Shown: positions 2,610 through 41,390, counted from the first letter of the stretch. The stretch: DNA of 64,000 nucleotides from Dehalococcoidia bacterium (GCA_965262725.1 OZ253555.1:64001-128000), one strand, 5' to 3'. Program-made: numbers and translations. Notes: generated from the sequence alone by a model not told the origin.

Positions 2610-2685
2610 GCGCCGGTAGCTCAGGGGACAGAGCATCAGTCTTCGGAACTGAGGGTCGAGGGTTCGAATCCTTCCCGGCGCGCCA
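2610..2685 (+). tRNA. tRNA-Arg (anticodon TCG)
   Basis: 76 nt. Acceptor GCGCCGG/CCGGCGC, D arm GCTC/GAGC, anticodon stem TCAGT/ACTGA with loop CTTCGGA, T arm GAGGG-TTCGAAT-CCTTC, encoded CCA. Confidence 0.97.
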
Positions 2686-3210
2686 CTCACTCGTGCCCGC
2701 GTTGTTACGGTAGCCTTCCGTGCGACTGTGAGTAGCCACAAGAGCTTCGTCGCGGCGAGTCGTCATTCTCTAGCGGGGCCTCTTCGAGTCGCTCCGCAGA
2801 GCGCTCGGGATGCACGGGCCCCGTGCTCAGGCGAGTCGCCGCTTTGCCACGGGCGCGTTACCGAGGCCAATCCCGCACCTGAGTCGCCTACTGCGATGCG
2901 CTCCGCCGCCCGGCGTTCGTGCCTCGGGGTGGTTACGCCACGTGGGCGATGCGTACGGGCACTGTCGCGCGGTGCCTCGTGCTGCAGCACCTTCTGGCCC
3001 GACTTGCCGCGACATTGAACCGTCGCTGCGCCGTCGCGTCGGTCAGAGACTTACTCATCACCAGAGTAGGCACTATATCTGATCCAGCGAAGCGCGAGAA
3101 CGAAGTGGCAGAACAGTAGGGCGCCTCGTGTTGCCACCGGAGGCCGACCGTAGGTAACCTTCCGACGCCTTGACGAGCCGATCTGGCGACTTGGTGGACG
3201 GGGCGCGCCG

Positions 3211-3984
3211 ATGTCGATTTGGCTGGTCGAGCAGCTACGGCTGACGGTCTTCCCTGCTGTGCCGGTAGCACCACTCGCCGAAGAGTGGTGGACGTCGGTA
3301 GTTGGGCTGCCGCCCGACGAGTACCGGGCACGTCCGTCCCAGGGGACCTCCACCGCCACCGGCCCACTGGTTCACGATAGCCTCGCGTCGGCACTACTTG
3401 AACTGAATCTAGCACCAGGTCGTATAGACTGGTTACTGCAGTCTAATGGCGACCTAGACAACAAGGGGATGGAGGGACTCCCAACGATCGGAGGTGTCGC
3501 TGATGTGCTCCCCCTATTCACGGCGAGAATCGGCCCGTGGTTGTTTGAGATCGGCGACCCGCTGCAGCGAATAGCGCTCGGTGCTGTCGTCCATCAGCCT
3601 GTTGAGAGTCGGCGCGTGGGCTATGAGGTCCTGGTACCGTTGATCCCGAGCGTGACGCTCGAACCTGATGCTGTGTCCGACCTGATCTTCCAGATCAACA
3701 GACCTCGGCCGTCACTGACATACCCGGATATCGTGCTTAATCGCATGGGCCATTGGAGCGTGACGCGATGGCAGTTGATTCAAACGTCGATATCGATTCC
3801 TTCGGGCGGCGCACAAGTCCAAGAAAACAGTCACGGTTTCTCTGTACGCTTACAGTCCGAGATTAACACTGCTGTACCGCTTCCGGACGGGATCGAACAA
3901 CTAGACTCGAGTCTCATTGCGGACCTTCTTTCTGAACTACAGAGTGGGCTTGACCGAACAATACAGCACGGAGATATCGCGTGA
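3211..3984 (+). CDS. Hypothetical protein, TIGR04255-like; gene 1 of a coupled triad
   Basis: 257 aa ORF with LAPGRIDW, RIALG and INT segments reminiscent of TIGR04255-like proteins; GTGA overlap with the next gene. Confidence 0.6.
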   Translation: MSIWLVEQLRLTVFPAVPVAPLAEEWWTSVVGLPPDEYRARPSQGTSTATGPLVHDSLASALLELNLAPGRIDWLLQSNGDLDNKGMEGLPTIGGVADVLPLFTARIGPWLFEIGDPLQRIALGAVVHQPVESRRVGYEVLVPLIPSVTLEPDAVSDLIFQINRPRPSLTYPDIVLNRMGHWSVTRWQLIQTSISIPSGGAQVQENSHGFSVRLQSEINTAVPLPDGIEQLDSSLIADLLSELQSGLDRTIQHGDIA

Positions 3985-4667
3985 GCAATCAAATTGACAC
4001 GGCGACCATCGCAATGGATGGCGATCGTCAGGGGTCTGACTACGCCATTCGGCGTAAGTGCTACCTGCGCAATGATACTGATTGGTCGTGCACTGACGTG
4101 GTCGTTTTGGCTGCCGAAGCAGATGCATCATTCGTCGCTCAAATCGTATCCGCTACTAGTATCCTGCGCGGACCATTACAGGCTTCGCCGCAGAGGACTT
4201 TTATCTCACACGGGGACGATTATCAACCGCTTATGTTCACTGCGATTGAGGCCTTCTCGGCCCCGACCCATCCTGGTGATGTCTCTGATGTTTCTTGGAC
4301 CACGCCGACCGCACTTCAGCATGCCTTGAGTACTTCGTTCCTTAAGCGATTGGAAGACATCAGCCGCCTGCGCGATGGTTGGGTCGATGACGGCATTGCG
4401 ATTGGCGGAGATGTCCTCTCACGTGCCCAGATGCTCGCAAGAGAGACGGCCCAAATCGGTGGCGAACCGGACCTCATCCCCGCGCTTGATGGGGCAGTCC
4501 AACTCATCTGGTACTTTGGTCCGACCCATTATTTCACGCTGTATGTCGACGCAGATGGCGAGTGGCGACCGGGTGCGCTCCGTCGCGGAGCGAACTTCAG
4601 CAGCGTTCTGGCCGAGAGCCTCTCACAGATCAGGGCCGTGCTCCGTGAGGGAAGGGACGGTGAGTGA
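3981..4667 (+). CDS. Hypothetical protein (putative antitoxin); gene 2 of the triad
   Basis: 228 aa. C-terminal LKRLEDISRLRDGWVDDG...PDLIPALDGAVQLIW domain preceded by a ~110 aa extension. Confidence 0.65.
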   Translation: MSNQIDTATIAMDGDRQGSDYAIRRKCYLRNDTDWSCTDVVVLAAEADASFVAQIVSATSILRGPLQASPQRTFISHGDDYQPLMFTAIEAFSAPTHPGDVSDVSWTTPTALQHALSTSFLKRLEDISRLRDGWVDDGIAIGGDVLSRAQMLARETAQIGGEPDLIPALDGAVQLIWYFGPTHYFTLYVDADGEWRPGALRRGANFSSVLAESLSQIRAVLREGRDGE

Positions 4668-5076
4668 TGCGATTGCGCCGCATGAGCACGTCGTCCGCTT
4701 CTTCCACCGGCACTGCGTGAGCAGGGGGCGTTTGCGTGGCAGTGTAGTCAGACGAACGCCATACACCGAGCCCAAGTCAGTATTCGTCGTTGAGCGAGCG
4801 CCCGGTGGTACGGCGACCGAGCTACTCGCGACAAAACCGAGTCACGGCTGGATCAGGTGGCGAGTCGATGCGCTTCGTTCGAAGCCCCTCAATTCCGAGC
4901 CGAGGTTCGACGTGAAGTGGAATCCGGAAGGGGCTGTGGGACCCTTTGCTAACTTTCGCGACTCCCACGCGCTCCTAGTCGGCCCCGTATCTGACGCGGC
5001 GGCTGTGGAGGAACTAGTCGCATTAGCCGTTCATGAGAATGCTGGCCTTTTTGTGGATCCTTCTGACCACGACTGA
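4660..5076 (+). CDS. Hypothetical protein (putative ART/RES-like toxin); gene 3 of the triad
   Basis: GTG at 4660 overlaps the previous stop; 138 aa; HEHVVRF...KSVF...FDVKWNP...SHALL pattern. Confidence 0.6.
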   Translation: MSDAIAPHEHVVRFFHRHCVSRGRLRGSVVRRTPYTEPKSVFVVERAPGGTATELLATKPSHGWIRWRVDALRSKPLNSEPRFDVKWNPEGAVGPFANFRDSHALLVGPVSDAAAVEELVALAVHENAGLFVDPSDHD

Positions 5077-5177
5077 TGCCGCTCGCCCAGCGGACCGATC
5101 GTCTTCTCCGCTTGACGACGTCGAGCCTTCTCTGGTGGGTGGCGAGTTCCGTAGACCGGCCATCTCGAGATCGCGCC

Positions 5178-5557
5178 GGAGGAGGCCGCACGCAGTTGCC
5201 GGCAGCAGACGAATCGTCTCGGATGCATTGGCCCACCGAGTCGTCTCGTACTGAGCCTCGCGCTACGGAACCGTGTTCGGCAGGGATGGAGGCGCTGGGA
5301 CACCCCTTCGTGGGCCCGCAGGCGCCACACGGACGCAGGCCGATCCATGGCCGCGGGAGCTCCCGAGGGAGAGCAAGAACGTCCCGACGTACCACTCGAA
5401 CCGCCAGACGCCGGGCACGGCGACCCGCCAACTGGACTTCGTCTTCGCATCGAGAGAGCTGGCGGGGTCCGTGCAGGTACGGGCGCTCAACGAGCCGGAT
5501 CAGTGGGGCCCCAGCGACCACTGCCGCTTGGCGATCGGGATTTCGTAGCGAGGCGTG
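5178..5557 (+). pseudogene. Truncated, internally deleted copy of the EEP gene at 9479-10306
   Basis: Near-identical to 9840-10315 except that ~9910-10005, which includes the AGDLN motif, is missing. Confidence 0.9.
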
Positions 5558-5650
5558 CGCCCGGGCTCACCGCCTCCGCGGAATGCGAGTTCGCGTGGCC
5601 TCGGGGGCCCTGCGTTCGAGCAACCGGACCTGAGTCGACGGTTGGCAGCG

Positions 5651-5729
5651 CCTTCGCCTGTGCTGCCACCGTGCCTGAGCGTCAGTTTGGCTAACTGGGG
5701 TTGCCGTTCTAGTTCTCACCGGGTACTCA
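5651..5729 (+). repeat. Eroded tRNA-Arg 3'-half/att-like site
   Basis: TGCCACCGTGCCTGAGCG-TCAGT-TTGGCTA-ACTGG-GGTTGCCG-TTCTAGT...CCGG. Confidence 0.6.
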
Positions 5730-5773
5730 GGTATGTAGTCCCCCAAATATCCTCGGTGCCGGTCGGGCGCGGG

Positions 5774-7558
5774 TCAGGGGAGGAAGAGCTGCTGCCAGCG
5801 CGCCGAGCCCCGGCCCCAGCAGTCGACGGAGCCGTCCGGCCGAACGCCGCAGCTGTGGTCACGTCCCGAGCTGACCGAGACGAACGGCCCGGGCGGGGGT
5901 GTCGCCTCGCCGTAGTCGTCGAGGCCCCAGCAGATGACGGCGCGGTCGGTTGCCACCGCGCAGGTATGGTCCGCCCCCGAGCTGAGGGAGGTGAACGTTC
6001 CGCGTGGTGGTGTGGAGCGCCCGTGCCCGTCCCGGCCCCAGCAGGAGGCGGAGCCGTCCGGCCGGAGGCCGCACGCGTGGCTCCAGCCGGCGCTGACGGA
6101 GGCGAACGTCCCGAGTGGGGGCACGGTCTCGCCGTCGGTGTCCTCGCCCCAGCACGCGAGGGAGCCCACGGCCGTCACCCCGCAGTAGTAGCGCGGTCCG
6201 GCGCTGAGGGAGAGGAACGTCTCCTCCGGTGGCTCGGCCGAGCCACCCCCCTCCGAGCCCCAGCAGACGAGCGTGCCGCCCGGCCGGAGGCCGCAGGTCG
6301 AGAACCACCCGGTGCTGACGGAGGAGAAACTTCCTGCGGGCGGCGTGGCCCTGCCGAACTGGTCGTTGCCCCAGCAGGAGGCGGAGCCGTCTCGCCTGAT
6401 GCCGCAGCTGTGGTACCTCCCGGAGCTGACGGAGCGGAACGTCCCGTCGGGTGGTATCGCCTGCGGGGAGCTGCCCGAGCCCCAGCAGGTGAGCGATCCG
6501 CCCTTCCGCACGCCGCAGGTGTGCTCCGTGCTCGCGCTGACGGAGGCGAACGCTCCGTCCGGCGGCGAGGCGCGCCCGCCGCCGTCGTGGCCCCAGCACA
6601 CGAGGGCGCCGCCCGGTCTGACGCCGCAGCTGTGTAGGACGCCCGCGCTGACGGAGGCGAACCTCCCCGCAGGTGGTGTGGACTGACCATCCTCGGTGTT
6701 GAAGCCCCAGCACTCCACCTCGCCGCCTGGCCGGACGCCGCAACTGTGGAGGTGCCCGGCGGTCACGGAGGCGAACGCCCCGGGGGGGACGTCGATGAGC
6801 GGGTCCCACCCCCAGCAGTCGACGGCGCCACCCGGCCGGACGCCGCAGCTGTGGAGGACGCCCGCGCTGACGGAGACGAACCTCCCGTCGGGCGGGGTGG
6901 ACTGGTGGTTCTCGTCCGATCCCCAGCAGGTGATCCAGCCGTCGGCGGCCACCGCGCACGTGTGGCCGGTCCCCGCGCTGAGGGAGAGGAACCGTCCCGC
7001 GGGCGGCGTCGACCGCGTGGTTCCATCGAGAGCCCAGCAGTCGACGGAGCCATCCGGCCGGAGGCCGCACGTGTGCGCCCCCCCGGCGCTGACGGCGGTG
7101 AATCTCCCGGGAGGCGGCGTCGCCCGCCCGCCACCGCCGTCGCCCCAGCAGGTGGCGGTGCCGTCTGTCCTCACCCCGCAGGTGTGTGCCGTCCCGGCGC
7201 TGACGGAGGTGAACGTCCCCGGAGGTGGCGTGGCCCGGCCGCTCTCGTCGCTCCCCCAGCAGAGAACGGAGCCGCCGGTCGTCACGGCGCACGTGTGGCG
7301 GGTGCTGGCGCTGACGGAGGCGAACGATGCCGGGGGGTCGGTGGTTTCAACGGAGTGCGCCTCCTCCGCGCCGCCGGGGCTCGGGGTGGGGTTCGGCGGA
7401 TCACCGGCCCGGCCGGGTGTTCCGTGTTCCCCGGGAGTGCTGGCCGGTGCGTGCGGCAGAGAGCCCGGTTCGGGCGAACAGGCGGCCGCGAGCGCGAGCA
7501 CCGTCACGAGGGCGAGCGGGCCGGCCCATCGCCGGCGCTGGGGGCGATCGGATGCCAT
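5774..7558 (-). CDS. RCC1-like repeat lipoprotein
   Basis: Lipobox LAAAC, Pro-rich linker, 14 tandem FxSVSAGxxHxCGxRxDGxxxCWG repeats. Confidence 0.92.
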   Translation of the reverse strand: MASDRPQRRRWAGPLALVTVLALAAACSPEPGSLPHAPASTPGEHGTPGRAGDPPNPTPSPGGAEEAHSVETTDPPASFASVSASTRHTCAVTTGGSVLCWGSDESGRATPPPGTFTSVSAGTAHTCGVRTDGTATCWGDGGGGRATPPPGRFTAVSAGGAHTCGLRPDGSVDCWALDGTTRSTPPAGRFLSLSAGTGHTCAVAADGWITCWGSDENHQSTPPDGRFVSVSAGVLHSCGVRPGGAVDCWGWDPLIDVPPGAFASVTAGHLHSCGVRPGGEVECWGFNTEDGQSTPPAGRFASVSAGVLHSCGVRPGGALVCWGHDGGGRASPPDGAFASVSASTEHTCGVRKGGSLTCWGSGSSPQAIPPDGTFRSVSSGRYHSCGIRRDGSASCWGNDQFGRATPPAGSFSSVSTGWFSTCGLRPGGTLVCWGSEGGGSAEPPEETFLSLSAGPRYYCGVTAVGSLACWGEDTDGETVPPLGTFASVSAGWSHACGLRPDGSASCWGRDGHGRSTPPRGTFTSLSSGADHTCAVATDRAVICWGLDDYGEATPPPGPFVSVSSGRDHSCGVRPDGSVDCWGRGSARWQQLFLP

Positions 7559-7992
7559 CGCGCCGTTACCTCTCCCGCCCGCGGGCGGCTCGATCGGGGT
7601 TCCGGCATCCGGACTCGGGGAGGCCGCGACTCACGGCCGCGGCACTCTAGCAGGTGGACGGGCCTCCTGCGTCCGGGCAGGCTCGGGATCCGCACCGGTA
7701 CGGATCCGGGAACGATTCCGCGTGCGTTGCAGGCGAGGCCGGGAGCGTGGCCTCCCCTCGGTGCGGTTCAGGGCCTAGGACGGCCCTTGGTCCCTCCGTT
7801 GAGGCGCTCGTCCGTACAGACAAGTCGCTCCTCGCGGGACTCATACGCGGCGGATCGGTTCGGATTGGGGAGGCGTGCGGAGACGCCCAGCCAGCGCCGT
7901 GTGCGTATGACAGTCTGAAGTCCTACGCCTGCAAGGTGGAGGCGCTGCTCGCGAGGGTTGCAGCATGCGGGCTGCAGGACGACGTCCTCAAG

Positions 7993-8388
7993 CTAGTTCA
8001 TCGTCACCTTGTCCGGCGTGATCTTGAGGATGACGCGCTTGTCGGCGTCGAGCTGCGCGGCGAGGGCGGCGTCATCGGCATTGGACTCCCTGCCGTGGGC
8101 GGCTCGAATTCTGCGGGTGGCCCCAACGCGTACCGGGTCGTCGCCAATGCGCTCAGCGGTGCCATAGAGCACGAGCTGCTGCGGGCCTTCGTTGACAACC
8201 ATCGCGACTTTCGGCTGGCGACCCACGTTGTGCCACTTGGCCCGGTCCGCCGTGACCGACATGAATACGTGGGAGCCGTCGAAGATGTAGGACATCGTGG
8301 AAACCTGCGGGGAGCCGTCGCGACGGCCGGTAGCGAGGACGGCGTGGAGGTGGTCCCGGAGGAACTGCTCTTGCTCGGGGGTCATCAA
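7993..8388 (-). CDS. PPOX-class F420-dependent oxidoreductase
   Basis: AVLATGRRDGSPQVS...RAKWHNVGRQPKV...RVILKITP; GAGG RBS. Confidence 0.88.
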   Translation of the reverse strand: MMTPEQEQFLRDHLHAVLATGRRDGSPQVSTMSYIFDGSHVFMSVTADRAKWHNVGRQPKVAMVVNEGPQQLVLYGTAERIGDDPVRVGATRRIRAAHGRESNADDAALAAQLDADKRVILKITPDKVTMN

Positions 8389-8652
8389 TCGCCTCGTTGG
8401 GTTGAGTGTTGAGAGTCTACCGCCGAACCCAGCGCCATGCCCGCTCGCACACGGGATCGGGGGTGGCCCGGCCCGAGCGATCGCAGGGGCCGGTTCCCGG
8501 CAGGCCCGTCCGGTCGGGACTCACCAATCCCAGATGCCACCCGGCCGACACCGTCGCTCAGTTGGCCAAGCTGGCGCTCGGGCCCTGCAACGATTCGGTC
8601 CCTTGTCTGGCCTCGTAGGATTAGCGCCGAAGTTGGAAAGGGCGTCGGCGCA

Positions 8653-9478: not shown

Positions 9479-10306
9479 ATGACAGTGACGATCGTCTCCT
9501 GGAATGTCGCGCGCCGCCGGAAGCCGTGGCGTGTCCTAGGCGACATGGATCTCGATGTCGCGTTGCTCCAGGAGGCAAGCCGCCCGCCGCGGGACGTCGC
9601 AACCCGCATCGAGCTGGACCCGGCGCCCTGGCCGAAGCCAAGCGCGCGCGCATCGCGACGCTGGCGCACGGCAATCGCCAGACTCTCCGAGCGCGTCTGC
9701 CTGGAATGGATCGACGCGAAGTCGCTCGAGGATGCGGCCAGCGGGGAGCTGGCTGTCAGCCATGCGGGCACGCTCACCGCTGCGCGCGTGTCCGCCCCCG
9801 GCATCGAGCCCTTCCTCGCCGTCTCCATGTACGCGCCGTGGAGGAGGCCGCACAAGGTGACCGGCAGCAGACGGATCTTCTCGGATGCATCGGCCCACCG
9901 AGTCGTCTCCGACCTGTCCGTGCTCGTCGGCCGCGAGTCCGGCCACCGCATTCTGGCCGCCGGGGATCTCAACATCCTCCATGGCCATGGAGAGCGCGGC
10001 AGCTCGTACTGGGCCTCGCGCTACCGAACCGTGTTCGACAGGATGGAGGCGCTCGGGCTCCCCTTCGTCGGCCCGCAGGCGCCAGACGGACGCCAGGCCG
10101 ATCCATGGCCGCGGGAGCTCCCGAGGGACAGCAAGAACGTCCCGACGTATCACTCGAACCGCCAGACGCCGGACACGGCGAGGCGCCAGCTGGACTTCGT
10201 CTTCGCCTCGAGAGAGCTGACGGGCTCCGTGCGGGTACGGGCGCTCAACGAGCCGGATCAGTGGGGCCCCAGCGACCACTGCCGCCTGACGATCGACATC
10301 TCGTAG
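9479..10306 (+). CDS. Endonuclease/exonuclease/phosphatase (EEP) family protein
   Basis: SWNV, DVALLQEA, AGDLN, QLDFVF and SDH motifs. Confidence 0.92.
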   Translation: MTVTIVSWNVARRRKPWRVLGDMDLDVALLQEASRPPRDVATRIELDPAPWPKPSARASRRWRTAIARLSERVCLEWIDAKSLEDAASGELAVSHAGTLTAARVSAPGIEPFLAVSMYAPWRRPHKVTGSRRIFSDASAHRVVSDLSVLVGRESGHRILAAGDLNILHGHGERGSSYWASRYRTVFDRMEALGLPFVGPQAPDGRQADPWPRELPRDSKNVPTYHSNRQTPDTARRQLDFVFASRELTGSVRVRALNEPDQWGPSDHCRLTIDIS

Positions 10307-10362
10307 CGAGGCGTGGGCGTGAGGGCACAGAGGAGCACGCCACGCCGAGAGGGCTTCGTCGA

Positions 10363-10740
10363 GTGAGCGAACACGCGGACCCGCCGCTGGAGCTGCGGTT
10401 TGACCGCCTCGCATCCCTCCTTCCCATGTTCGAACCTCCCGACTTCTCCTTCGGGACGGCGAAGGCTGCCGAGCAGTTCGTCGAAATCGCGTATGAGGAC
10501 GGTTGGGTGCGGCCGGAATTCGCCTGGATGGAGTGGCTTGGCACGGATCACCACCAGCGCTTCGAGCAGGATCACGAGACGGTTGCGGACGCGAGCGCTG
10601 GCGAACTCGCGCAACTGCTCACTACGCACATTCGGCTGGATCGGTTCTCCTATGGCGCTCTGGAGGAAGCGGGTCAGTCAGGCCTCTTCACCGCCATTCT
10701 GCGGCGCATCGACCGACTCCACCGCGAAGCGGCCGGGTAG
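10363..10740 (+). CDS. DUF6508-like protein
   Basis: FVEIAYEDGWVRPEFAWMEW...LLTTHIRLDRFSYGAL...GLFTAILRR; start codon uncertain. Confidence 0.75.
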   Translation: MSEHADPPLELRFDRLASLLPMFEPPDFSFGTAKAAEQFVEIAYEDGWVRPEFAWMEWLGTDHHQRFEQDHETVADASAGELAQLLTTHIRLDRFSYGALEEAGQSGLFTAILRRIDRLHREAAG

Positions 10741-10764
10741 GAAGACCCGTCGTCCTCGCGCCAC

Positions 10765-13021: not shown

Positions 13022-13124
13022 CTTTGCGGGCGCCTTGGTGCGCTCCGGGCGGCCCGCCCCCTTGCCGGGCGAGCCCCCGATGTACTGTAGCGCCCGCGCT
13101 CGATCCTCCGTGCTGGGCTGCGCG

Positions 13125-13186
13125 CCGCCGGGGCCGCCCATGGATCGACAGACGACATCCGCGAGCGGGGGCCACCCCTCCCTCTC
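13125..13186 (+). repeat. Eroded IS5-like transposase-derived repeat (copy 1 of 3)
   Basis: GGGCCGCCCATGGATCGACAGACGACATCCGCGAGCG is shared with ~29225 and partly with ~22168. Confidence 0.55.
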
Positions 13187-25387: not shown

Positions 25388-25403
25388 AGGTGAGCCGCTT
25401 CGA

Positions 25404-32172: not shown

Positions 32173-32444
32173 CGGGTGACATACTCGTCACTGTGCCGCT
32201 ACTAGCCGGAGTGCCCACTCGAACGCGGCCTATCGCGCACGCAGCTTGACGATCACGAAGGTCGTCGACCCGCCTCACACCGAGCGCCGCCATGAAGCGC
32301 TCCCGCACCGCAGCGACGCGCAGCGTTGCCCGGTGAGGAGCTGCGAGAATGCTCTTCTCACGGGTGACGAGGATCCAACGCTTAGGATCGCCGGGCCGGA
32401 TCTGCTCTCCGTCGAGCCGTTCGGGGCGATCGGCGATCGGCGGC

Positions 32445-33353
32445 CTACATGTTCAAGAGTCGCAAGAATTCCCGCTCGTCGATGATCTCCAGGTCGTGAC
32501 CCTCTTCGGCGAGCGTCACCGCCTTGCGCAGTTTTGAGGACATCCCGTCGCTGCCGACTACCCCGAAGCGGGTCAAGCCGACTACGAGGTAGTTGAGAGT
32601 CTTCGAGACTGAGTCGGTAGGAACAGCCCCAACATCCAATACGAACTGGGCCGCTTCGGTGCGAGTCATCACATCTAGCGTTCCAGTGAACGCCACGCGT
32701 GCACCGTAGAGGGAGTGACCCTCGTCAAACTCATCGACGGTTGCGGCCAACTGTGCGAGCGACGGTGACCGGGTGGACGGAGTGAATGGTCCGCTGGATG
32801 TCAAGCGCCCAAGTGCACACTGTGTACGCTCGGCCAAGTCGATGAGTGACGTTGCACCGTGATAATCGCACAGCCATGCTGCCAAATGGGCCGCGGCCCT
32901 CGCGTCCGACAACGGTTCATGGTGATCAAGGTCGATGCCCAGTTCAGCGGCCAGTCGATCAAGACGGTATGTCCAGCGATCCGGCCAAGTTCTCTTCGCA
33001 AGGCGGTAAGTGCAGGCGAAGTCCCTCTCGGGACATGTATAGCCCCAGTGGTGAGCCGCAGTCCGGGCAACGGAGAAGTCGAACGCCGCATGGTGCGCAA
33101 CGGTGACGCGCTCACCAATCAGCTTGTCAACTGCTGACCAGACCTCTGGAAAGTCAGGAGCATTCGCAGTTTGTTCCGGCGTGATCCCGTGCACACTGAT
33201 GTTGAGCCCGTGGTACTCGTTGCTCGGCGGACGGATAAAATACCGATGTTCACCGGTCACCACACCATCATCGATCAGGACTAGGCCAAGGGCGCAGGCC
33301 GATGCTCGGGAGGCCGTCGCTGTCTCGAAATCGATCGCCGCGAAAGACCTCAT
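32445..33353 (-). CDS. DEDDh 3'-5' exonuclease (DNA pol III epsilon-like) with C-terminal BRCT domain
   Basis: AIDFETA, AHHAAFD, HHEPLSDA; VAFTGTL...SVSKTLNYLVVG...K..KA. Confidence 0.92.
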   Translation of the reverse strand: MRSFAAIDFETATASRASACALGLVLIDDGVVTGEHRYFIRPPSNEYHGLNISVHGITPEQTANAPDFPEVWSAVDKLIGERVTVAHHAAFDFSVARTAAHHWGYTCPERDFACTYRLAKRTWPDRWTYRLDRLAAELGIDLDHHEPLSDARAAAHLAAWLCDYHGATSLIDLAERTQCALGRLTSSGPFTPSTRSPSLAQLAATVDEFDEGHSLYGARVAFTGTLDVMTRTEAAQFVLDVGAVPTDSVSKTLNYLVVGLTRFGVVGSDGMSSKLRKAVTLAEEGHDLEIIDEREFLRLLNM

Positions 33354-33581: not shown

Positions 33582-33645
33582 CGGGCCCGCCGCGCATGAC
33601 CCTCAGTCTGCTGAACTGAGGGTCGAGGGTTCGGATCCGTCCCAC
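33582..33645 (+). repeat. tRNA-Arg 3'-half/att-like site
   Basis: GGGCCCGCCGCGCATGACCC-TCAGT-CTGCTGA-ACTGAGGGTCGAGGGTTCGGATCCGTCCC; 30/32 through the T arm outside the loop; acceptor end lost. Confidence 0.92.
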
Positions 33646-33720
33646 GACCATCTCAAGAAGGTCGGCCAAATCGCGAATTTCCAACCAAACCGCCCCCGCG
33701 CCGTCCGCTGTGTTCACCCG

Positions 33721-34186: not shown

Positions 34187-37100
34187 GTGCAGAATCTTTC
34201 TCGATTCTGGCAGTTGGCGGGTGTGCAGGCTGGCGCCAGGCGCGCATCCGCTCGCCGGGGGGCGCCACCCCGGCGGCGCTCCTTCGCCGTGGTGGTGTTG
34301 CTTGGCCTGCTTGGGGCGCTGGCCTCGCCCGTCGCCGCCCAGATCCCACCGAGTACCGACGCCACGCTGAGCGGCCTCGAGCTGAGCCAAGGACGGCTCG
34401 ATCCGGCCTTCGCCACCGGCACGAGCGACTACACGGCCGCCGTGGGCTACACGGTCACACGCATCTCGGTCGTACCCAGCACGACGGACGCCAACGCTAC
34501 CGTCGCCTACCTCGACGGCAGCGACATGCCCCTGGCCGATGCCAACACGGTCACGGACGAACAGGATGTGGACCTGGTGGTGGGCGAAACCGTCGTGAAG
34601 GTGAACGTCACTGCCGAAGACACTTCCACCGTGCTGACCCACACCGTCACGATCACGCGCACGGAGGAGGACACCTCGCTGAGCCCGACGGCCAGCGATC
34701 CCTCGATCGCATTCGCTACCAGCGCGGTCTACCGGGTGACGTTCACCGGCGACTGGACCAGTTCGGCCACTCCGGGCGGTCTGCCCAGCGGCGCCCACTT
34801 TTCCCGATTGGTCGGCGCCGTTCACAGCGCGAACGTCACCTTTGTTGAAGGAGGCGAGACTGCAAGCGCCGGAGTCAAGTTGATGGCGGAAGTCGGCGTC
34901 ACGTCGGACCTTGGGGTCGAAGTGACCGCAGCCATGGCCGATGCGCTCTCGGTGCTCAAGGGTTCCAGCAACATCAACCGGACCAGCACCCAGAGCCTGA
35001 CGACCACGCTAACCAGCGATCATCCCCGGGTCACGCTGCTGAGCAGGGTGTCGCCGAGCCCGGACTGGTTCGTCGGCGTCTCGGGGCTACTGCTGCTCAA
35101 CTCCGATGGCCACTGGCTGCGCTCGCACCAGGTAGAACTCTACCCCTGGGATGCCGGCACCGAGGATGGCGGCGAGTTCTTGCGGACCAACGATCCGACC
35201 GTGCCGCCGGGTGAGATCACGAGCATCCGCGGCACCGGCAAGTTCTCGACCGAGCCGATTGCGAGCCTGACCTTCACGCTCGAATCGGTCAGCACCACCC
35301 GCAGCGTCGACGAGAACACGGAGGCGGGCGTCACCATCGGCGAGCCGGTCGTCGCCCCCGACAGCAGCGGCACGGTCACTTATTCCCTGGGCGGAACGGA
35401 TGCCGCATCGTTCGATGTCGTCGCAGCCACCGGCCAGCTCCAGACCAAGGCCGCGCTCGACTACGAGAGGAAGTCCAGCTACGAGGTCACAGTCACCGGC
35501 ACCGACACGGATGGCTCGGTCACCACCACCGTGGCGATCGAGGTCACCAACGTCATTGAACTCGCAACGTTCTCAGGTCCGACGATGGTCACGTTCGCCG
35601 AGAACGGCGCGACCCGCGTGGCGACGTTCAGCTATTCGTCGGACGAGGATCGGGACGGCATCCAGTGGTTGACGGGCGGGGTAGATCGCGGGCTCTTCAG
35701 CCTGGACAGCCCATCTGGCGCGCTCAGGTTCCTGCAAGCGCCGGATTTCGAGAACCCGTTGGATGTCGGGCCGCCGGGTCGCGGAACAGACAATAGCTAT
35801 GAGCTGAAGTTGGTGGCGTGGGCCAGAGACAGTGGTCCGATATTCACCGACGAGGTAGATGTCAAGGTCACGGTCACCGACGTGGACGAGGCCGGCGCGT
35901 TGTCGCTGTCTTCGACCCGTCCCGCGCTGGGCGCCGTGCTGACCGCCGTCCTCACCGACCCGGACGGCGTGACCGCCGGAACGGCGGTCTGGCAGTGGGA
36001 GAGGTCCACGGGCCGCCTGGCATGGAACGTGGTCGGCGGCGCGACCCTTGCCACATACACCCCGATGGCCGCGGACGCTGGGCACTACCTGCGGGTGAGC
36101 GCGTCCTATACCGATGGTCACGGCTCCGGCAGGACGGCCCAGACGGTGGCGCCCAACGTGGTGCTGGCGCGAACACTGAGCAGGCTTGAGGTCGCCACGA
36201 CCTCCTCAAGACAGATGTATCCCGCGTTCGACCCTGAGATTCTCCACTATGCCGTGGGTTGCATCGCGGCGGACACGCTCAGCTTGACACTCTCGACGAC
36301 GGACACCGACACCCGCCTGGCGGTCGACGGCGTCCAGTACGCCAATCAGAACACGGTCGTCGCGTTGACGGACAAGGGCGGCGGGAGCGACATCCTGATC
36401 ACGCTCGGCGGCGGCGGCGATGGTGCAAGCACCACCTACACACTGCACTGCCTCGCCGAATCTTTCCCCACGCTCACCGTGACCAAGCTCGACGGCGCGT
36501 CGGAGTCATTGATGACGGCCTCATTTGGGGTCAGCAGTGGCGTGGCGCACATTGCGATTATCGATAACAACGGCGTACCTCGGTTTCGGCGGCAACAGAC
36601 CGCAGCAGGGCACTTCAGGGCGTACCCGGACGGCGGATATCCCTATGCGTTAGCCGTCACAAGTGAACCGGCGTCATATGTCGTGTACGATGCAAATCTA
36701 GACCTTGTCCAGAGCGGGATCTCAACTGTCAATCTCCAGAACACTAACGGGTATGACTTCTTCATCAAATCGAACGGCGACTATGTGCTGATGGCCTACG
36801 AGCCTGCCGTACGTGATATGAGCTTCATTACTGAACGATACGGCCTGACCCACGGCAACGGTGATCCATTCGGCCCCGCCGAGGACACGGAGGATGCAGT
36901 TATTCAGGTCGTCTCGCCCACCGGTCGAGAGCTGTTCCTGTGGAACTCCTGGGATTACATGGCGCTCGAAGACTGTACGCAACATCGCTTCCCCGATGAC
37001 TACGCGCACATCAACTCGGTACAAGTCGTCGATGGGGACATCGTCGCCTCATTCCGGGGCTGCTCGAAGGTGTTGCGAATCGACGGGACCAGCGGCGAGG

Positions 37101-40100
37101 TGATCTGGCGACTGGGCAGGAGCAACCTCAGTACAGAGGAGTGGGAGAGCCGTGACATCGGCCCGCCGCCGCTGCAGATCGTCGGCGACCCCTATGGGGA
37201 GTTCTGTGGGCAGCATGCTGCGCGCTTGCTGGACAACGGCCACCTCATGCTCTTCGACAACGGCGTGGAGTGCCTCGAAGATCCGCGAACGGGCGAGACG
37301 GAACGAGTCGGCCGAGAGTTCAGCAGAGTCGTTGAGTACGCCATCGATCTGGACCACGGCGAAGCGATCTTCCAGCGTCACGTCTTTCTCCACGGCCGCA
37401 TGGACTCCTTGTCGTACTCGATGGGTCAAGCCGATCCGCTGGACAACGGAAACTGGTTGATCACCTGGGGTAGAGGCATCCGAAACCCCAATCCCGACCA
37501 CCCCCCTCCTGACGTGTCGGGAACGCAGGTGAATCCAGCGACCGGAGTCGAAGAACTCACGGTCGTCGCCATGAGCGGCGGCAACGTGATGACCGCAGGC
37601 CGGATGTACCCCGTGGCGCCGGTGGCGCTGGCGGCCGAACCCATCGCCCTGACGGCTGAGTTCCCCGGGAGCACGTACACATCAATCTTCAACCTCGGCG
37701 CCACCGATCCGCCGCAGGTGGTCGTGGCCTTCAGCCGTCCCGTGGTCGACTTCGACGAGACGTCGACGTCGCTCAGCGTCACGGGCGCGACAGTCGCGAG
37801 CGTGAGCGCTCACGTTGTCGCTGGTGAGCCGGCCAACGCCTACCTCGTCACACTGGCGCCGGACGGCGACGGTGCGATCAGCTTCCGTCTCGACACCGGT
37901 CAGGCCTGCGGCGCCAATGGCGGCATCTGCACAGCTGACGGGACAGCGCTGTCGGAGGCGCCCTCGGCGCTGGTGATCAGTGCTCCCGTCACCGTCTCGT
38001 TCGAGCAGTCCACTTACACCGTCACCGAAGGCGCCTCGCGGTTCGTGACCGTTCTCCTCAGTTCGGCCCACCAGGGCGTCCGCAGTGTCACCATCCCGGT
38101 CGTGCGGCAACAAACCACGGGCAGCGCCTCGGCCGATGACCTCACCCTGGACGAGAGCGTGACCTTCGAGGCAGGCGAAACCCGCAAGTCGCTGGCGTTG
38201 AACGCCACCGACGACGACCTCGTCGAGGGCGACGAGACCGCCACGATCGAGTTCGGCGCGCTGCCGGACGGCGTGACCGCCGGGTCGACCTCGACGGTGA
38301 CGCTCACCGACGCGGATCAGGCGCAGATCGCCTTCACCACCGTCGTAACGCAGATCTCCGAGGGGGGCCAGACGCAACTCAGCTTCGAGATCACGAACGG
38401 CGTCACGTTCGAGGTCGACCAGACCATCAATCTCACCGTCGGCGGCACGGCCACGGCGGAGGGCGACTTCACGCTCGTGGACGCCGGCAACCAGACGCTG
38501 TCCGATCCCTATGCCGTCATGTTCCCTGCGGGCGCGACCTCCGCCGAGGCGACCATCCGCGCAGTCGACGACGCCGACATCGAGCACGCGGCGGAGACGA
38601 TCACGGTGAGCGCACAGCTCGGCCTGACGGGCGCCACGCTCGGCACGCACACGGTCACGATTCCTCCCAGCGACGTGCCCGACACGCCGGTCGTCACCAT
38701 CGCCCCGGGGAGCGCCGTGTCCGAGGGGCAAGACGCCACGTTTACGCTCTCCCGCACGGTGACCCAGAGCCTGCCGCTCTCGGCCCCCCTGACGGTGTCC
38801 GTGGAGGTCACCGCCACGGGCTCCACACTGAGCGGTTCGCCGGCGCCGACCGTTCGCTTCGAGGGCGGCGACGCCACGGCCGACCTCGCCGTGCTCACAC
38901 TCGACGACAGCGTTGTCGAGCCCCCCGGCACGGTGACGGCCCTCATCCAGGGCAGCACGAGCAACCCCCCCGTCTACCTGACCGAGCCGCCTAACAACGC
39001 CACGGTGACCGTGAACGACAACGATGTGGCGGCCTTCACGCTCTCGGCCAGCAACGAAGAGGTAGCTGAAGGTGCCGCGGTCACGGTGACCATCGTGGCC
39101 GACGGTGTCACCTTCGCCGGGCCCCAGACGATCACGCTGACGCTCGGCGGCACGGCCACGCCAGTGGATGACTTCACGCTCGTCGACGGCGGCCGGGAGC
39201 TCTCGAACCCGTACGTCGTGACGCTGCCGGCCGGGGCCAGATCGGTGAGCGTGATGATCATGGCGGTGACCGATTCCGAGGACGATGCCGACGAGGCCAT
39301 CGATCTCTCCGTCAGCCACGAGGGCAGCGGTATCGGGAGCGTCACCATCACCATCACAGAAGCGCCCATCATTCTGCCGCCCGTCATCACCGGCGGTGGC
39401 GGCGGCGGCGGCGCGCCGTCCGGCCCGGTCCCCAGCGATGTCGAGTTCGAGTGGAACGTCACACGCGACATCGAGGAGCTCGCCAGCGGCCACGACGACC
39501 CGACCGGTGCCTGGTCCGACGGCGTCACGCTCTGGATCGCCGAGAACGGCTCCGGCGCCGCCGACGCCATCTACGCCTACGACCTCGAGAGCGGCGAACG
39601 CGTCGAGGACCGCGAGTTCGACCTGGACGCAGGCAACCTCGCGCCTCGTGGCGTCTGGTCCGACCGCACAACCATCTGGATCTCCGACAGCGGCAAGGAA
39701 AAGCTCTTCGCGCACGACCTCGCGAGCGGCGAGCGCCTCCCCGACTCCGACCTCGCGCTGCACCCCGACAACGACGACCCGCGCGGCATCTGGTCCGACG
39801 GCTCGACCATGTGGGTCCTCGACGACCGCGACGACGCCCTCTTCGCCTACGACCTCGCCGGTGGCACGCTGCTCGCCGAGTACGCCCTGCACGACGACAA
39901 CGACACGCCTCACGGCATCTGGTCGGACGGCGTCGGCGTCTGGGTCTCCGACCACAACGACAAGCGTCTCTTCGCCTACCGCCTGCCCGCCCTCGAGGAG
40001 GAGGACACGAGCGCGGACGAGGACGTCGCGGACGAGGAAGAGGACCTTGAGCTCGAACGTGTCACGGACGAGGAGTTCAAGAAACTCTCCGGCGCCAGCA

Positions 40101-41089
40101 ACAACAGCCCCCGCGGTCTCTGGTCCGACGGCGACGTCATGTACGTCGCCGACGCCAGCGACGGCAAGGTCTACAGCTACAACATGCCCGACGCCATCGA
40201 CGCGCGCCTCGCCTCGCTCACCCTCAGCGGTGTCGACTTCGGGGAGTTCGACAGTGCCCAGGCGGAGTACGCCGGGACGGCCGGGGACGACGTCACCGAG
40301 ACCACGGTCGGGGCGGAGGCGGCGCAGTCGGGAGCGACGGTCGTCATCAAGCCCGACGACGCCGACGACGACGGGGATCCGGCGAACGGCCACCAGGTCG
40401 CGCTGGAAGAGGTCTCCGAGATCACCGTCACCTCGGCCGACGGCAGCCGCGAGCGCGTCTACCGCGTGCTGGTCGGCGATCCGGCGCAGGAGGCCCCGGG
40501 CGCTCCCGCGCCCCCGTGCTTCCGGGGCGCCGTCGCGCTCGGGTTCAGCCTGGTGGTCTACGCGGGCGGCAGCGTCGAGGAGCTGGTGGACTGCGCGCAG
40601 AGCCGCCACGGCACGGCCCTCTACACCCTGCACGACGGCGGCTACGTGCCGTACATCCTCGGAGCACCCGAGTTCGTGAACAGCTCCTTCGGCGAGCTGT
40701 TCGCGGGCGGCGTCCCCGCCAGCACTCCGCTCATCATCAAGAGCGACGGGCCGCCCACCCCCGATCCCGCCGGGAGCATCACGGGCGATGACCGGACACC
40801 GCCCTGGCCGGAGTGCCTGCGCGGCACGGTCGCCACGGGCTTCAGCCTCGTCCTCTACCAGGGCGGTGCGATCGAGGAACTCGTGGCCTGCGCGGAGAGC
40901 CGCAACATCACGGCCATCTACACCCTGCACGACGGCGGCTACGCCCCCTACATCCTCGGTGCTCCGGAGTTCGTCAATCGGTCCTTCCGTGAGCTGTTCA
41001 CGGGCGGCCTGCCCTCCATCACGCCATTGGTCGCCAGGAGCGACGGGCCGCCCGCAGCGGGCGCGGACCGCGGCGATGGGGACCGTTGA
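34187..41089 (+). CDS. Giant (2300 aa) secreted multidomain surface protein
   Basis: Signal peptide; DATLSGL cadherin-like sandwich; Spondin_N-like (SPSPDWFVG, DAGTE); cadherin (LDYE, PDFE); arylsulfotransferase-like (HINS, GQH, FDNG); Calx-beta; PRGIWSDG propeller repeats; duplicated C-terminal GFSLVxYxGG domain. Confidence 0.93.
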   Translation: MQNLSRFWQLAGVQAGARRASARRGAPPRRRSFAVVVLLGLLGALASPVAAQIPPSTDATLSGLELSQGRLDPAFATGTSDYTAAVGYTVTRISVVPSTTDANATVAYLDGSDMPLADANTVTDEQDVDLVVGETVVKVNVTAEDTSTVLTHTVTITRTEEDTSLSPTASDPSIAFATSAVYRVTFTGDWTSSATPGGLPSGAHFSRLVGAVHSANVTFVEGGETASAGVKLMAEVGVTSDLGVEVTAAMADALSVLKGSSNINRTSTQSLTTTLTSDHPRVTLLSRVSPSPDWFVGVSGLLLLNSDGHWLRSHQVELYPWDAGTEDGGEFLRTNDPTVPPGEITSIRGTGKFSTEPIASLTFTLESVSTTRSVDENTEAGVTIGEPVVAPDSSGTVTYSLGGTDAASFDVVAATGQLQTKAALDYERKSSYEVTVTGTDTDGSVTTTVAIEVTNVIELATFSGPTMVTFAENGATRVATFSYSSDEDRDGIQWLTGGVDRGLFSLDSPSGALRFLQAPDFENPLDVGPPGRGTDNSYELKLVAWARDSGPIFTDEVDVKVTVTDVDEAGALSLSSTRPALGAVLTAVLTDPDGVTAGTAVWQWERSTGRLAWNVVGGATLATYTPMAADAGHYLRVSASYTDGHGSGRTAQTVAPNVVLARTLSRLEVATTSSRQMYPAFDPEILHYAVGCIAADTLSLTLSTTDTDTRLAVDGVQYANQNTVVALTDKGGGSDILITLGGGGDGASTTYTLHCLAESFPTLTVTKLDGASESLMTASFGVSSGVAHIAIIDNNGVPRFRRQQTAAGHFRAYPDGGYPYALAVTSEPASYVVYDANLDLVQSGISTVNLQNTNGYDFFIKSNGDYVLMAYEPAVRDMSFITERYGLTHGNGDPFGPAEDTEDAVIQVVSPTGRELFLWNSWDYMALEDCTQHRFPDDYAHINSVQVVDGDIVASFRGCSKVLRIDGTSGEVIWRLGRSNLSTEEWESRDIGPPPLQIVGDPYGEFCGQHAARLLDNGHLMLFDNGVECLEDPRTGETERVGREFSRVVEYAIDLDHGEAIFQRHVFLHGRMDSLSYSMGQADPLDNGNWLITWGRGIRNPNPDHPPPDVSGTQVNPATGVEELTVVAMSGGNVMTAGRMYPVAPVALAAEPIALTAEFPGSTYTSIFNLGATDPPQVVVAFSRPVVDFDETSTSLSVTGATVASVSAHVVAGEPANAYLVTLAPDGDGAISFRLDTGQACGANGGICTADGTALSEAPSALVISAPVTVSFEQSTYTVTEGASRFVTVLLSSAHQGVRSVTIPVVRQQTTGSASADDLTLDESVTFEAGETRKSLALNATDDDLVEGDETATIEFGALPDGVTAGSTSTVTLTDADQAQIAFTTVVTQISEGGQTQLSFEITNGVTFEVDQTINLTVGGTATAEGDFTLVDAGNQTLSDPYAVMFPAGATSAEATIRAVDDADIEHAAETITVSAQLGLTGATLGTHTVTIPPSDVPDTPVVTIAPGSAVSEGQDATFTLSRTVTQSLPLSAPLTVSVEVTATGSTLSGSPAPTVRFEGGDATADLAVLTLDDSVVEPPGTVTALIQGSTSNPPVYLTEPPNNATVTVNDNDVAAFTLSASNEEVAEGAAVTVTIVADGVTFAGPQTITLTLGGTATPVDDFTLVDGGRELSNPYVVTLPAGARSVSVMIMAVTDSEDDADEAIDLSVSHEGSGIGSVTITITEAPIILPPVITGGGGGGGAPSGPVPSDVEFEWNVTRDIEELASGHDDPTGAWSDGVTLWIAENGSGAADAIYAYDLESGERVEDREFDLDAGNLAPRGVWSDRTTIWISDSGKEKLFAHDLASGERLPDSDLALHPDNDDPRGIWSDGSTMWVLDDRDDALFAYDLAGGTLLAEYALHDDNDTPHGIWSDGVGVWVSDHNDKRLFAYRLPALEEEDTSADEDVADEEEDLELERVTDEEFKKLSGASNNSPRGLWSDGDVMYVADASDGKVYSYNMPDAIDARLASLTLSGVDFGEFDSAQAEYAGTAGDDVTETTVGAEAAQSGATVVIKPDDADDDGDPANGHQVALEEVSEITVTSADGSRERVYRVLVGDPAQEAPGAPAPPCFRGAVALGFSLVVYAGGSVEELVDCAQSRHGTALYTLHDGGYVPYILGAPEFVNSSFGELFAGGVPASTPLIIKSDGPPTPDPAGSITGDDRTPPWPECLRGTVATGFSLVLYQGGAIEELVACAESRNITAIYTLHDGGYAPYILGAPEFVNRSFRELFTGGLPSITPLVARSDGPPAAGADRGDGDR

Positions 41090-41166
41090 CGCGCGGGATG
41101 ACAGGCACTGCACGTACGACCGAACTGCATGGGTCGCACTCGCGCTGGGTAGGGGGCTGACCAGCC

Positions 41167-41231
41167 CTCAGAACGAGAGCGCCAGATACAACCTGGCGCA
41201 CCCCTTTTTCGCACGACCGCAGCTTCATGCC
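41167..41231 (+). repeat. 65 bp direct repeat, copy B
   Basis: Contains the perfect hairpin GCGCCAG-ATACAAC-CTGGCGC followed by ACCCCTTTTT. Confidence 0.9.
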
Positions 41232-41349
41232 GATGTTTGTGGAGTGGTGCTGGACTCGCCCGATCGACACAGCTCCGAGCGCCGTCAGGGCGGTTGGTCC
41301 GCCGCTTCAATCACAACCTGGCGAGCCCCTCGGGAGGCGCCAGTGCTCC

Positions 41350-41390
41350 CGACGCCCAGTTCGAGCAACTGGGTGTCGGGGGTTAGGGCT
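41350..41390 (+). repeat. Eroded tRNA-Arg 3'-half/att-like site
   Basis: CGACGC-CCAGT-TCGAGCA-ACTGG-GTGTC-GGGGG-TT; the outer stem pair is C/G instead of T/A. Confidence 0.55.

Follow-up and report, generated by a model that had tools for sequence, protein, structure and literature searches.

A tandem array of recombinase-less modules behind tRNA-Arg in a Dehalococcoidia genome

Behind the gene for tRNA-Arg(TCG) in a Dehalococcoidia bacterium lies a tandem array of at least ten small gene modules, none of which was found to carry a recombinase. The array was studied in a 64,000-nt stretch of DNA, hereafter the window (GCA_965262725.1 OZ253555.1:64001-128000, or G000:C1:64001-128000), taken from a single-contig genome, G000, of 3.67 Mb and 70.6% G+C. 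It comprises the tRNA gene, nine joints and ten modules, with every joint positioned 3' of the tRNA and in the same orientation. We read it as a tandem accretion array of modules resembling cis-mobilizable elements (CIMEs), probably moved in trans and most likely by a tyrosine integrase resident at the distal boundary, an interpretation that we hold with moderate confidence. Positions given bare or prefixed with w are those of the window, and seven-digit and 128-kb positions are those of the G000 genome. Genes were taken from a codon-usage gene caller and lists of open reading frames (ORFs), and cargo families were assigned with Pfam.

The anchoring tRNA gene is intact, is the sole tRNA called in the window by ARAGORN and is the single functional copy of tRNA-Arg(TCG) in the genome. 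A second ARAGORN call of the same type, at G000 2331859-2331933, is likely a false positive, having an odd anticodon position, reading as coding sequence and showing no similarity to the real tRNA. The first nine modules measure 2977, 2802, 6648, 1536, 1798, 1398, 8233, 5010 and 7681 bp, and the tenth runs from 41409 to some point before housekeeping-like genes at 47.2 kb. Module size thus spans 1.4-8.2 kb, with five modules below 3 kb. G+C content is 0.63-0.69 in most 2-kb bins between 2 and 46 kb, under the genome mean.

Joints behind the tRNA gene

A repeat search returned six 57-nt copies in one orientation, at the tRNA, 15252, 16860, 20200, 33587 and 41340, which are 61-81% identical to the reference copy. 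An earlier profile had been built from the copies themselves; in leave-one-out nhmmer searches, each site was removed from the profile and the whole 3.67 Mb genome was searched, and seven window sites were significant (E 2.2e-14 to 0.025 genome-wide). All eight covariance model (CM) hits with E<1e-5 in the window, the tRNA included, fall on the + strand. An earlier note on this DNA, made from the sequence alone, had described 3' halves of tRNA-Arg recurring in the same orientation, and these searches bear it out; the profile scan of the genome and its relatives that it had suggested, as run, both recovered the seven sites and found the family in a sister genome, G003. Each joint combines a non-tRNA arm, a dyad around a 7-nt spacer and a more or less preserved tRNA 3' part. 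The anchor and the joints are listed here with their leave-one-out E values, except where another measure is named.

2610..2685, + strand: tRNA-Arg(TCG), array anchor, intact (ARAGORN; Rfam RF00005, 66 bits)
5663..5733, + strand: site w5682; arm and dyad, spacer TTGGCTA (class C), tRNA 3' part eroded; E 3.6e-4
8536..8600, + strand: cryptic site w8553, core GCTCAGT-TGGCCAA-GCTGG; homology to a paralogous locus begins within site 1625572-1625652
15249..15320, + strand: site w15268; arm and dyad, spacer GCGGACA, T-arm and acceptor diverged, tail CCCCCGCTC; E 1.9e-6
16857..16928, + strand: site w16876; spacer TCATGGG (class B), T-arm and acceptor with 4 mismatches, tail CCTCCGCTC; E 1.9e-7
18727..18798, + strand: eroded site w18746, spacer CCTCATGG; CM 13.7 bits, E 1.4
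20197..20268, + strand: site w20216, the best copy; spacer TCGGGCA (class A), tail CCCTCCGCTGC followed by a run of 14 G; CM 81.5 bits, leave-one-out E 2.2e-14
28502..28573, + strand: eroded site w28521, spacer TTCATGG (class B); E 0.025 genome-wide
33584..33655, + strand: site w33603; spacer CTGCTGA, T-arm kept, acceptor lost; E 1.2e-9
41337..41408, + strand: site w41356; spacer TCGAGCA (class A-like), 3' part eroded, last recognisable joint; E 2.7e-4

Two of these joints rest on comparison with paralogous loci. At w8553 the profile match is limited to the palindromic core (E 0.013 in a window-only search); window 8558-8930 is 93% identical to 1625591-1625963, with the onset of homology inside site 1625572-1625652, and the joint at ~8536-8600 is an additional site that the earlier note overlooked. 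Site w18746 stays below significance by profile (CM E 1.4; nhmmer E 0.12 in a window-only search). Because window 18571-18749 aligns over 182 columns, at 88% identity, with the left flank and site at genome 1869507-1869682, we regard w18746 as an eroded member of the family, and a copy first listed with doubt can be taken as genuine. At the other extreme, the final 25 nt of w20216 are identical to the tRNA (an exact 25-mer match). The 14-G run directly after it, at window 20277-20290, is 7 nt shorter in contigs of sequencing runs X1 and X7, and could be a slippage-prone tract at a module boundary.

An anchored alignment of 14 sites, with information expressed in bits per column, revealed the dyad as the most conserved part, at 1.34 for the left arm, which ends in YCAGT, and 1.36 for the right arm, ACTGRGGGTCGAG. 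The non-tRNA arm before YCAGT, of consensus about CCACCGCGCATGAGC, reached 0.72, T-arm plus acceptor 0.69 and the 7-nt spacer 0.62; the shared arm noticed earlier is thereby confirmed. The dyad corresponds to the anticodon stem of the tRNA, and similarity to the tRNA begins at the 3' strand of the D-stem (GAGC). Spacers fall into three classes that recur across loci and species: class A, TCGGGCA-like (w20216, 1677637, the site of genome G008, 2536252, w15268 and w41356); class B, TCATGGG-like (w16876, 2540674, G003 L014:8839, w28521, 2564147, 2600070 and w18746); and class C, TTGGCYA-like (w5682, G003 L013:2727, 1625581 and w8553). Within class C, the w5682 spacer TTGGCTA is identical to that of the G003 site L013:2727-2801. 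A CCYCCGCTC-like tail follows w15268, w16876 and w20216, matching the CCYCRCT-like tail reported at the outset on several copies, and the same tail follows the live tRNA of G003. Because it is native there, the right halves of the sites descend from a tRNA-Arg locus and are not chance resemblances.

Comparisons at five loci revealed that homology breaks inside the sites. Between w16876 and G003 L014:8839-8909, similarity of ~85-90% extends over the end of a gene, 115 nt of spacer DNA, the arm and dyad, up to GGGTCGAG, after which the sequences are unrelated. The reverse holds between w8553 and 1625581, which are unrelated as far as TCAGT and 93% identical thereafter, and between L036:4616, on a metagenome contig, and G003, unrelated and then homologous at 95% as in the w8553 case. 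Site w18746 shares left flank and arm with 1869530 and differs from it in the spacer, and an RCC1 gene follows a class-C site in both G000 and G003. All sites lie on the + strand while their nearest upstream genes are mixed (5 plus, 4 minus), a pattern that fits joints in DNA better than mRNA elements. On comparative grounds, the reading of the sites as recombination joints, as opposed to chance repeats or RNA genes, is supported.

The same family recurs elsewhere. Arm-type sites occur at nine other places in G000, which yielded 18 CM matches against 0-3 in each of 60 relatives, 15 of the 18 being sites on which the model was trained. G003 has five arm-type sites behind the orthologous tRNA-Arg, all on the + strand (E 2.8e-6 to 0.011 in 70 kb), and L036, a metagenome contig from a close relative of G003, has two. 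The arm-type pattern gave 0 matches in viral contigs; in a collection of 185,579 species genomes, 1 of 8 loci was related, that of the sister genome G003; and among metagenome loci, CM matches with E<=0.01 were confined to L036 (1 of 11). A separate, 'classical' family, with spacer CTTCGGA and another arm, is present at G000 2606777 and 2616069, at L019:6462 of genome G004 and at L036:4770. Both of these G000 copies, which are tRNA-Arg(TCG) 3' halves, lie together with four of the nine outlying arm-type sites in a second array on the minus strand (G000 2536182-2616090; L001-L004), which holds one integrase, at 2602575-2603849. One classical copy there sits 10 nt before tRNA-Arg(TCT), and site 2536252 is conserved with its right flank in G008.

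The 5' side of the anchor also has a duplicate. At G000 56053-56120, which precedes the window by 8 kb and the tRNA by 10.5 kb, the 5' half of tRNA-Arg recurs with 34 nt of its upstream flank, and a shortened T-arm comes next; there is no PF00589 match between the tRNA and this copy. Another type of insertion has therefore shifted the 5' side of this tRNA as well.

Recombinase content and the boundary integrase

The genome contains 23 PF00589 and 5 PF00239 matches, 0 of which lie within the window (64001-128000); the five PF00239 matches are at 0.36 and 1.99-2.11 Mb, away from the array. A tblastn search with 18 integrase proteins gave no match with E<0.05 in 2686-47000, 44 kb with ten modules, and its only two matches fell outside the array, in a 30-codon remnant (52807-52898) and in the tail of a gene resembling that of an insertion sequence (IS; 60321-60494). 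No PF00589 match occurs in the corresponding variable region of G003 (C2:1093774-1141622; 48 kb, 5 sites), nor any integrase match in the 15-kb contig L036, and no module with a recombinase was seen in the three arrays examined. The claim that the intervals hold no integrase therefore stands, and the case that would have spoken against it, of units each with its own decayed integrase, was looked for in the array and not found. Since no recombinase was found in them, the modules behave like cis-mobilizable elements and were probably integrated by an enzyme acting in trans.

A search for a linked tyrosine recombinase, a step likewise suggested before, led to a positional candidate at the distal boundary, in the first gene past the window.

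G000 128119-129192 (window-equivalent 64119-65192), - strand: resident tyrosine integrase, 357 aa, with Phage_integrase, SAM-like and central domains
52807..52898, - strand: ~30-codon remnant of the resident integrase family (blastn 91% to the G003 integrase; tblastn E 5e-5)

The protein matches Phage_integrase near full length (2-169 of 172) together with SAM_3 and Phage_int_M, and its gene lies 17 nt from dnaE on the same strand. A G003 gene matches it at 83% identity over 314 aa. Synteny between G000 and G003 restarts exactly at the integrase stop codon (G000 128118, G003 C2:1141622) and runs for >14 kb, with no alignment leftward of that codon until tRNA-Arg; the variable region so delimited measures 61.4 kb in G000 and 47.8 kb in G003, neither with another PF00589 match. 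Orthologues stand beside dnaE in G001, G002 and G003 at 76-78% identity, making the integrase conserved and syntenic in four species of the genus, and G033, of a different genus, has one at 65%; matches with E<=1e-60 were found in 7 of 61 genomes, G000 included. In G033, tRNA-Arg(TCG) is at L028:5756-5831 and the integrase at 5936-6970 on the minus strand, ending 105 bp from the tRNA 3' end, the classical tRNA-integrase arrangement; a search of 26.7 kb of that contig for the attR of the G033 element found no second tRNA-Arg fragment. With dN/dS of 0.31-0.33 among G000, G002 and G003, the resident integrase is under purifying selection. The remnant at 52807-52898 lies directly after an SBP gene, the place where G001 and G002 hold the intact integrase, and it is separated from the intact G000 gene by an IS256 element (54329-55552), an MMPL gene and a nested IS region (60321-63867).

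The simplest history would be one in which an integrase once adjoining tRNA-Arg was pushed away by later insertions at the tRNA, so that the modules now have tRNA-Arg(TCG) on one side and the resident phage-type tyrosine integrase on the other. Each joint would then be a hybrid att site, composed of the non-tRNA arm, an anticodon-stem dyad (..YCAGT / ACTGRGG..) around the 7-nt spacer, and GGTCGAG, with the better joints also retaining the tRNA T-arm, the acceptor 3' strand and the native downstream tail. The left part of a joint would come from the module on its left and the right part from the earlier occupant, as modules of the cis-mobilizable kind were integrated by an enzyme supplied in trans. 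Some insertions may have been composite blocks, including a six-module block arriving at once, and the array can perhaps still move. A single recombinase acting in trans had been proposed before; trans supply remains the simplest explanation, and as to the catalyst we have a candidate by position, which, given trans action, has about an even chance of being the enzyme.

Alternative histories of the array

Several observations weigh against trans mobilisation by the boundary integrase. Some cargo ORFs of no known family may include a novel recombinase; beside the integrase in G000-G003, no candidate tRNA-half remnant scored better than shuffled sequence (the score was reached by 246, 111, 235 and 57 of 300 shuffles); and G008 has one arm-type site and no close integrase orthologue. 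Exchange with the tRNA within the spacer should leave the tRNA loop CTTCGGA, which is present in 0 arm-type sites, so that the variable core as the place of crossover with the tRNA, put forward in the earlier note, is unproven. Homology breaks cluster in two zones ~21 nt apart and do not place the strand exchange: the left edge of the spacer (three cases) and the start of the T-stem (one case, together with w20216 and 2536252, which match the tRNA exactly in their last 25 nt, with 1-2 mismatches immediately before that stretch). In the part of the Islander account used here, crossover classes include the anticodon loop (A) and the T-stem region (J), which correspond to these two zones (PMC4383910). 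Among homology blocks of >=150 nt and >=75% identity in the array, 4 of 34 ends (12%) lie at a site, that is, within 40 nt, against 1.03 expected by random placement (P 0.017), and the other 30 do not. This enrichment is partly circular because two of the four helped to define w8553 and w18746, and without those two the count, 2 of 34, is not clearly above chance. Contigs of four runs covering 10401-29200, a form of data that drops rare variants, gave no excision or alternative junction; runs X1 and X7, from other studies and ~99% identical, bridge 15200-17026 and 18694-20269 in unchanged order, with all 30 bins covered. With order shared among ~99% identical strains and 4 of 34 block ends at sites, the repeated, present-day loading once proposed is not supported. 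Nor does erosion rise with distance from the tRNA, the nearest site being the most eroded and a site 17.5 kb away perfect; one-by-one accretion with neutral decay is therefore too simple. Three apparent rearrangements were rejected: a skip 18728->20226, seen in three runs, is a paralogue artefact whose 26 inserted letters match the arm at 1869530, with 21 letters on one side, and joints 13175->22199 and 29200->13121, considered as excisions, arise from the internal repeats D3, D15 and D16.

That each module is the stump of an independent island whose own integrase and most other parts have since been deleted, leaving an inert array, would accommodate the unchanged strain order and the 30 block ends away from sites, as well as the eroded joints at 5682, 8553, 18746, 28521 and 41356, the integrase remnant at 52807-52898 and the likeness of window 18571-18723 to the tail of a lost RelE/HTH module, seen by comparison with the 1869530 locus. 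We nevertheless find this history unlikely, given that neither a gene nor a remnant of an integrase is found at E<0.05 in 44 kb with ten modules, nor an integrase in 48 kb of G003 with five sites. The arm and dyad are common to the modules, and conservation is higher in the dyad than in the 3' part taken from the tRNA, a pattern one would not expect if unrelated elements were decaying neutrally; the modules of 1.4-1.8 kb each contain a single intact gene or operon; and in a six-species survey, as far as its excerpted results go, 6% of att-delimited islands were without recombinase vestiges, all but one of them >4 kb (bioRxiv 10.64898/2026.01.13.699239). Mobilisation in trans by some other enzyme, whether one of eight paralogous phage-type integrases, an Xer protein or a transient helper at the same tRNA-Arg site (a phage, an integrative and conjugative element (ICE) or an integrative and mobilizable element (IME)), strikes us as rather improbable, if less so than a set of stumps. 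The 23 PF00589 matches do include four Xer-like genes, along with eight paralogues that share 34-42% identity with the resident integrase; arm-type sites are also found far from any integrase, the G008 site without an orthologue being one more point on that side; and the classical tRNA-Arg(TCG) halves of G000, G004 and L036, with their CTTCGGA spacer and different arm, show that this tRNA has served at least one further type of integrase. Only the resident integrase, however, is tied by position both to the tRNA, in two genera, and to the array boundary, in two species; it is under purifying selection, and the arm-type pattern is found in 0 viral contigs and, in the genome collection, at 1 of 8 loci, in the sister genome. 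Finally, the repeats might act as RNA, either as tRNA-like elements for processing or stability or as small RNAs, punctuating the transcripts of defence and toxin-antitoxin genes. The anticodon stem still pairs, and one of its pairs shows some two-sided changes (UA 5, UG 5, CG 3 of 15), and T-arm pairing is partly retained in diverged copies; yet site orientation follows the tRNA regardless of the strand of flanking genes, many copies have no T-arm and acceptor, covariation contributes almost nothing (-0.07 kcal/mol) to the consensus fold and homology between loci breaks inside the sites. With 0 copies passing the Rfam tRNA threshold or ARAGORN, the site as a full tRNA-like gene was rejected, and an RNA role in general seems to us very improbable.

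Cargo and place among known systems

The modules carry defence, toxin-antitoxin and surface genes on both strands, with RCC1, Fic, AbiE and exonuclease genes on the minus strand and the TAC, ABC and giant-protein genes on the plus strand.

3211..5633, + strand: module 1; three ORFs of unknown family (3211-3984, 3981-4667, 4375-5076) and a fragment paralogous to an EEP gene (5076-5633)
5774..8388, - strand: module 2; RCC1-repeat protein (5774-7558) and PNPOx-like protein (7993-8388) (Pfam RCC1_2 3.4e-84, PNPOx_N 1.3e-18)
9479..13141, both strands: module 3; EEP nuclease/phosphatase (9479-10306, +), ADP-ribosylglycohydrolase (11493-12629, -) and DSP-type phosphatase (12470-13141, -) (Pfam)
15860..16450, - strand: module 4 (1.5 kb); single 196-aa ORF, earlier labelled TIMP-like, family not confirmed
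17194..18465, - strand: module 5 (1.8 kb); Fic/DOC protein (Pfam Fic 4.2e-20, Fic_N 1.6e-13)
18957..20162, + strand: module 6 (1.4 kb); Gp49/HigB-like toxin, HTH antitoxin and SecB-like chaperone, TAC-type (Pfam)
20407..27656, both strands: module 7; AbiEii/AbiEi (20407-22102, -), HTH-M78 protein (23877-25091, -) and HigB (25094-25387, -) (Pfam)
25780..27656, + strand: module 7, further; ABC ATPase and ABC-2 permease, an ABC exporter (Pfam)
30203..33353: module 8; DUF7380/DUF4209 proteins (PADLOC candidate PDC-S39) and DEDDh exonuclease RNase_T (PDC-S48; 32445-33353, -) (Pfam, PADLOC)
34187..41089, + strand: module 9; 2300-aa surface-type protein (Spondin_N, cadherin-like, ASST, Calx-beta) (Pfam)
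41499..42073, + strand: MazE/MazF pair, right of the last joint (Pfam)

The cargo labels of the earlier note hold by Pfam for RCC1, ADP-ribose, Fic, TAC, AbiE/HigBA/ABC, the exonuclease, the giant surface protein and MazEF; 'TIMP-like' and 'HEPN' have no Pfam support, and the ORFs of its 'triad operon' match no family. For the module 1 ORFs, Pfam and PHROG gave no match, ORF 3981-4667 has a weak PADLOC match to PDC-M32A (E 1.1e-4), and the atlas clusters of 3211-3984 and 3981-4667 are unnamed or hypothetical only (2 of 2); the fragment paralogous to the EEP gene was recognised from repeats D7, D11 and D19. The module 4 ORF (15860-16450) has no Pfam, PADLOC or PHROG match, and PHROG matched 0 of 10 unknown cargo ORFs overall.

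Parts of the cargo recur. Block 8558-14149, in module 3, is duplicated at 1625591-1633312 at 93-98% identity, each copy beginning at an arm-type site and the paralogue carrying a 2.4-kb insert. A second Fic copy, 69% identical, begins 23 nt past site 2540591-2540662, whose spacer is the same as that of w16876. A 744-nt repeat, 95% identical between window 22166-22908 (module 7) and 29248-29991 (module 8), spans a 197/235-aa gene and its upstream region, and the gene has a 91-92% identical copy in the G003 array. A 116-nt repeat, 97% identical, lies in different modules at 24817-24932 and 44884-44999, and beside it the stretch 44694-44819 has >25 copies at 80% in G004. Outside the array, a 199-nt repeat resembling a miniature inverted-repeat transposable element (window 556-752) has 18 more copies in G000 (81-87%) and at least 17 in G008 (81-88%), and an Rfam match to the actinobacterial small RNA Ms_AS-4 (60976-61057, +; 51.7 bits against a threshold of 50) falls within a multi-copy IS region and is probably part of the IS.

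The array had been called integron-like, a label that fails here. There is a loose likeness, in that one integrase could serve many small recombinase-less cassettes and the sites are structured, with inverted repeats and a variable centre. In an integron, however, IntI sits beside attI, whereas the candidate here is a phage-type integrase with generic domains (by Pfam) 61.4 kb from the tRNA. In place of attC, which is defined by its own R/L box architecture, there are tRNA-derived, duplex-type dyads, copies of the anticodon arm and T-arm plus the shared arm; and in place of promoterless, co-oriented cassettes behind the common promoter Pc, there are genes on both strands. Nor is there a match to Xer dif/pdif modules, which have 28-bp XerC/XerD sites with a 6-nt centre in alternating orientation, whereas the sites here have a 7-nt spacer and a tRNA-derived dyad and are all directly oriented.

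Tandem islands at tRNA/tmRNA genes and cis-mobilizable elements are both already known, and the closest cases are the Dehalococcoides ssrA islands (the nearest) and the tycheposon islands of Prochlorococcus. Cis-mobilizable elements and accretion-mobilisation are reportedly treated by Pavlovic et al. in 2004: the elements are said to be att-flanked, to have no recombination or transfer genes, to depend on the integrase of a neighbour and to form tandem arrays. The cases described reportedly involve one or two CIMEs adjoining an ICE in Firmicutes; the modules here are very small and form a long array, and neither an ICE nor an IME was detected.

The ssrA islands are of the same class. They are tandem islands 3' of one essential small-RNA gene, with 3'-end direct repeats, a conserved upstream non-gene motif and an insertion point inferred in the T-loop region, according to the part of the published account drawn on here (PMC3146451). 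By the same partial account, 16 of 31 have an integration module and 15 do not, the latter having been proposed to be cis-mobilizable elements (McMurdie et al. 2011, PMC3146451), as against 0 of at least ten modules here. They further differ in their target, ssrA, and in the serine recombinase DsiB, compared with tRNA-Arg and a candidate tyrosine integrase; in having an integrase next to the attL of each island, compared with one at the far boundary; and in the repeat, which here includes an anticodon-stem dyad with variable spacer. Tycheposon islands resemble the array in their stepwise, tRNA-adjacent build-up, partial tRNAs and cargo: successive integrations push older elements inward and leave partial tRNAs scattered (bioRxiv 10.1101/2020.12.28.424599). 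Tycheposons differ in having their own tyrosine recombinase and replication genes, and degenerate ones keep fragmented integrases, whereas the array modules have no recombinase; the portion of that description consulted mentions no conserved arm or dyad with spacer classes.

As in the tRNA islands of Islander/TIGER, a regenerated tRNA and a displaced 3' fragment mark the ends (PMC4383910). The relevant part of that source counts, in a set of 3919 islands, 125 arrays with at least two members and 4 with at least three, and accepts tandem arrays only with an integrase per member, so that this array would be filtered out (PMC4383910). Likewise, the results seen from the six-species survey place recombinase vestiges in 94% of att-delimited islands (bioRxiv 10.64898/2026.01.13.699239). 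In the literature searched, no description of an all-integrase-less tRNA-Arg array was found, though an earlier one in print is possible.

What sets the array apart is the presence of at least ten att-delimited modules without a recombinase, five of them below 3 kb, joined by a specific, common site architecture, together with a single conserved integrase displaced 48-61 kb from the tRNA by the array. A bolder and in our view doubtful extension is that of a tRNA-based chromosomal cassette platform replacing attI, in which a vertically inherited phage-type integrase beside dnaE would capture and reshuffle self-expressed, recombinase-less defence, toxin-antitoxin and surface cassettes through sites that mimic the anticodon arm, with the 7-nt spacer classes serving as address codes that set which joints are compatible and keep unlike neighbours stable. 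If the resident integrase does serve the modules, the array would represent a second, independent route to integron-like gene capture, in Chloroflexota; the spacer classes would provide a testable rule for which joints recombine; and the build-up of defence and toxin-antitoxin genes at one spot, in genomes with few classical mobile elements, would be explained.

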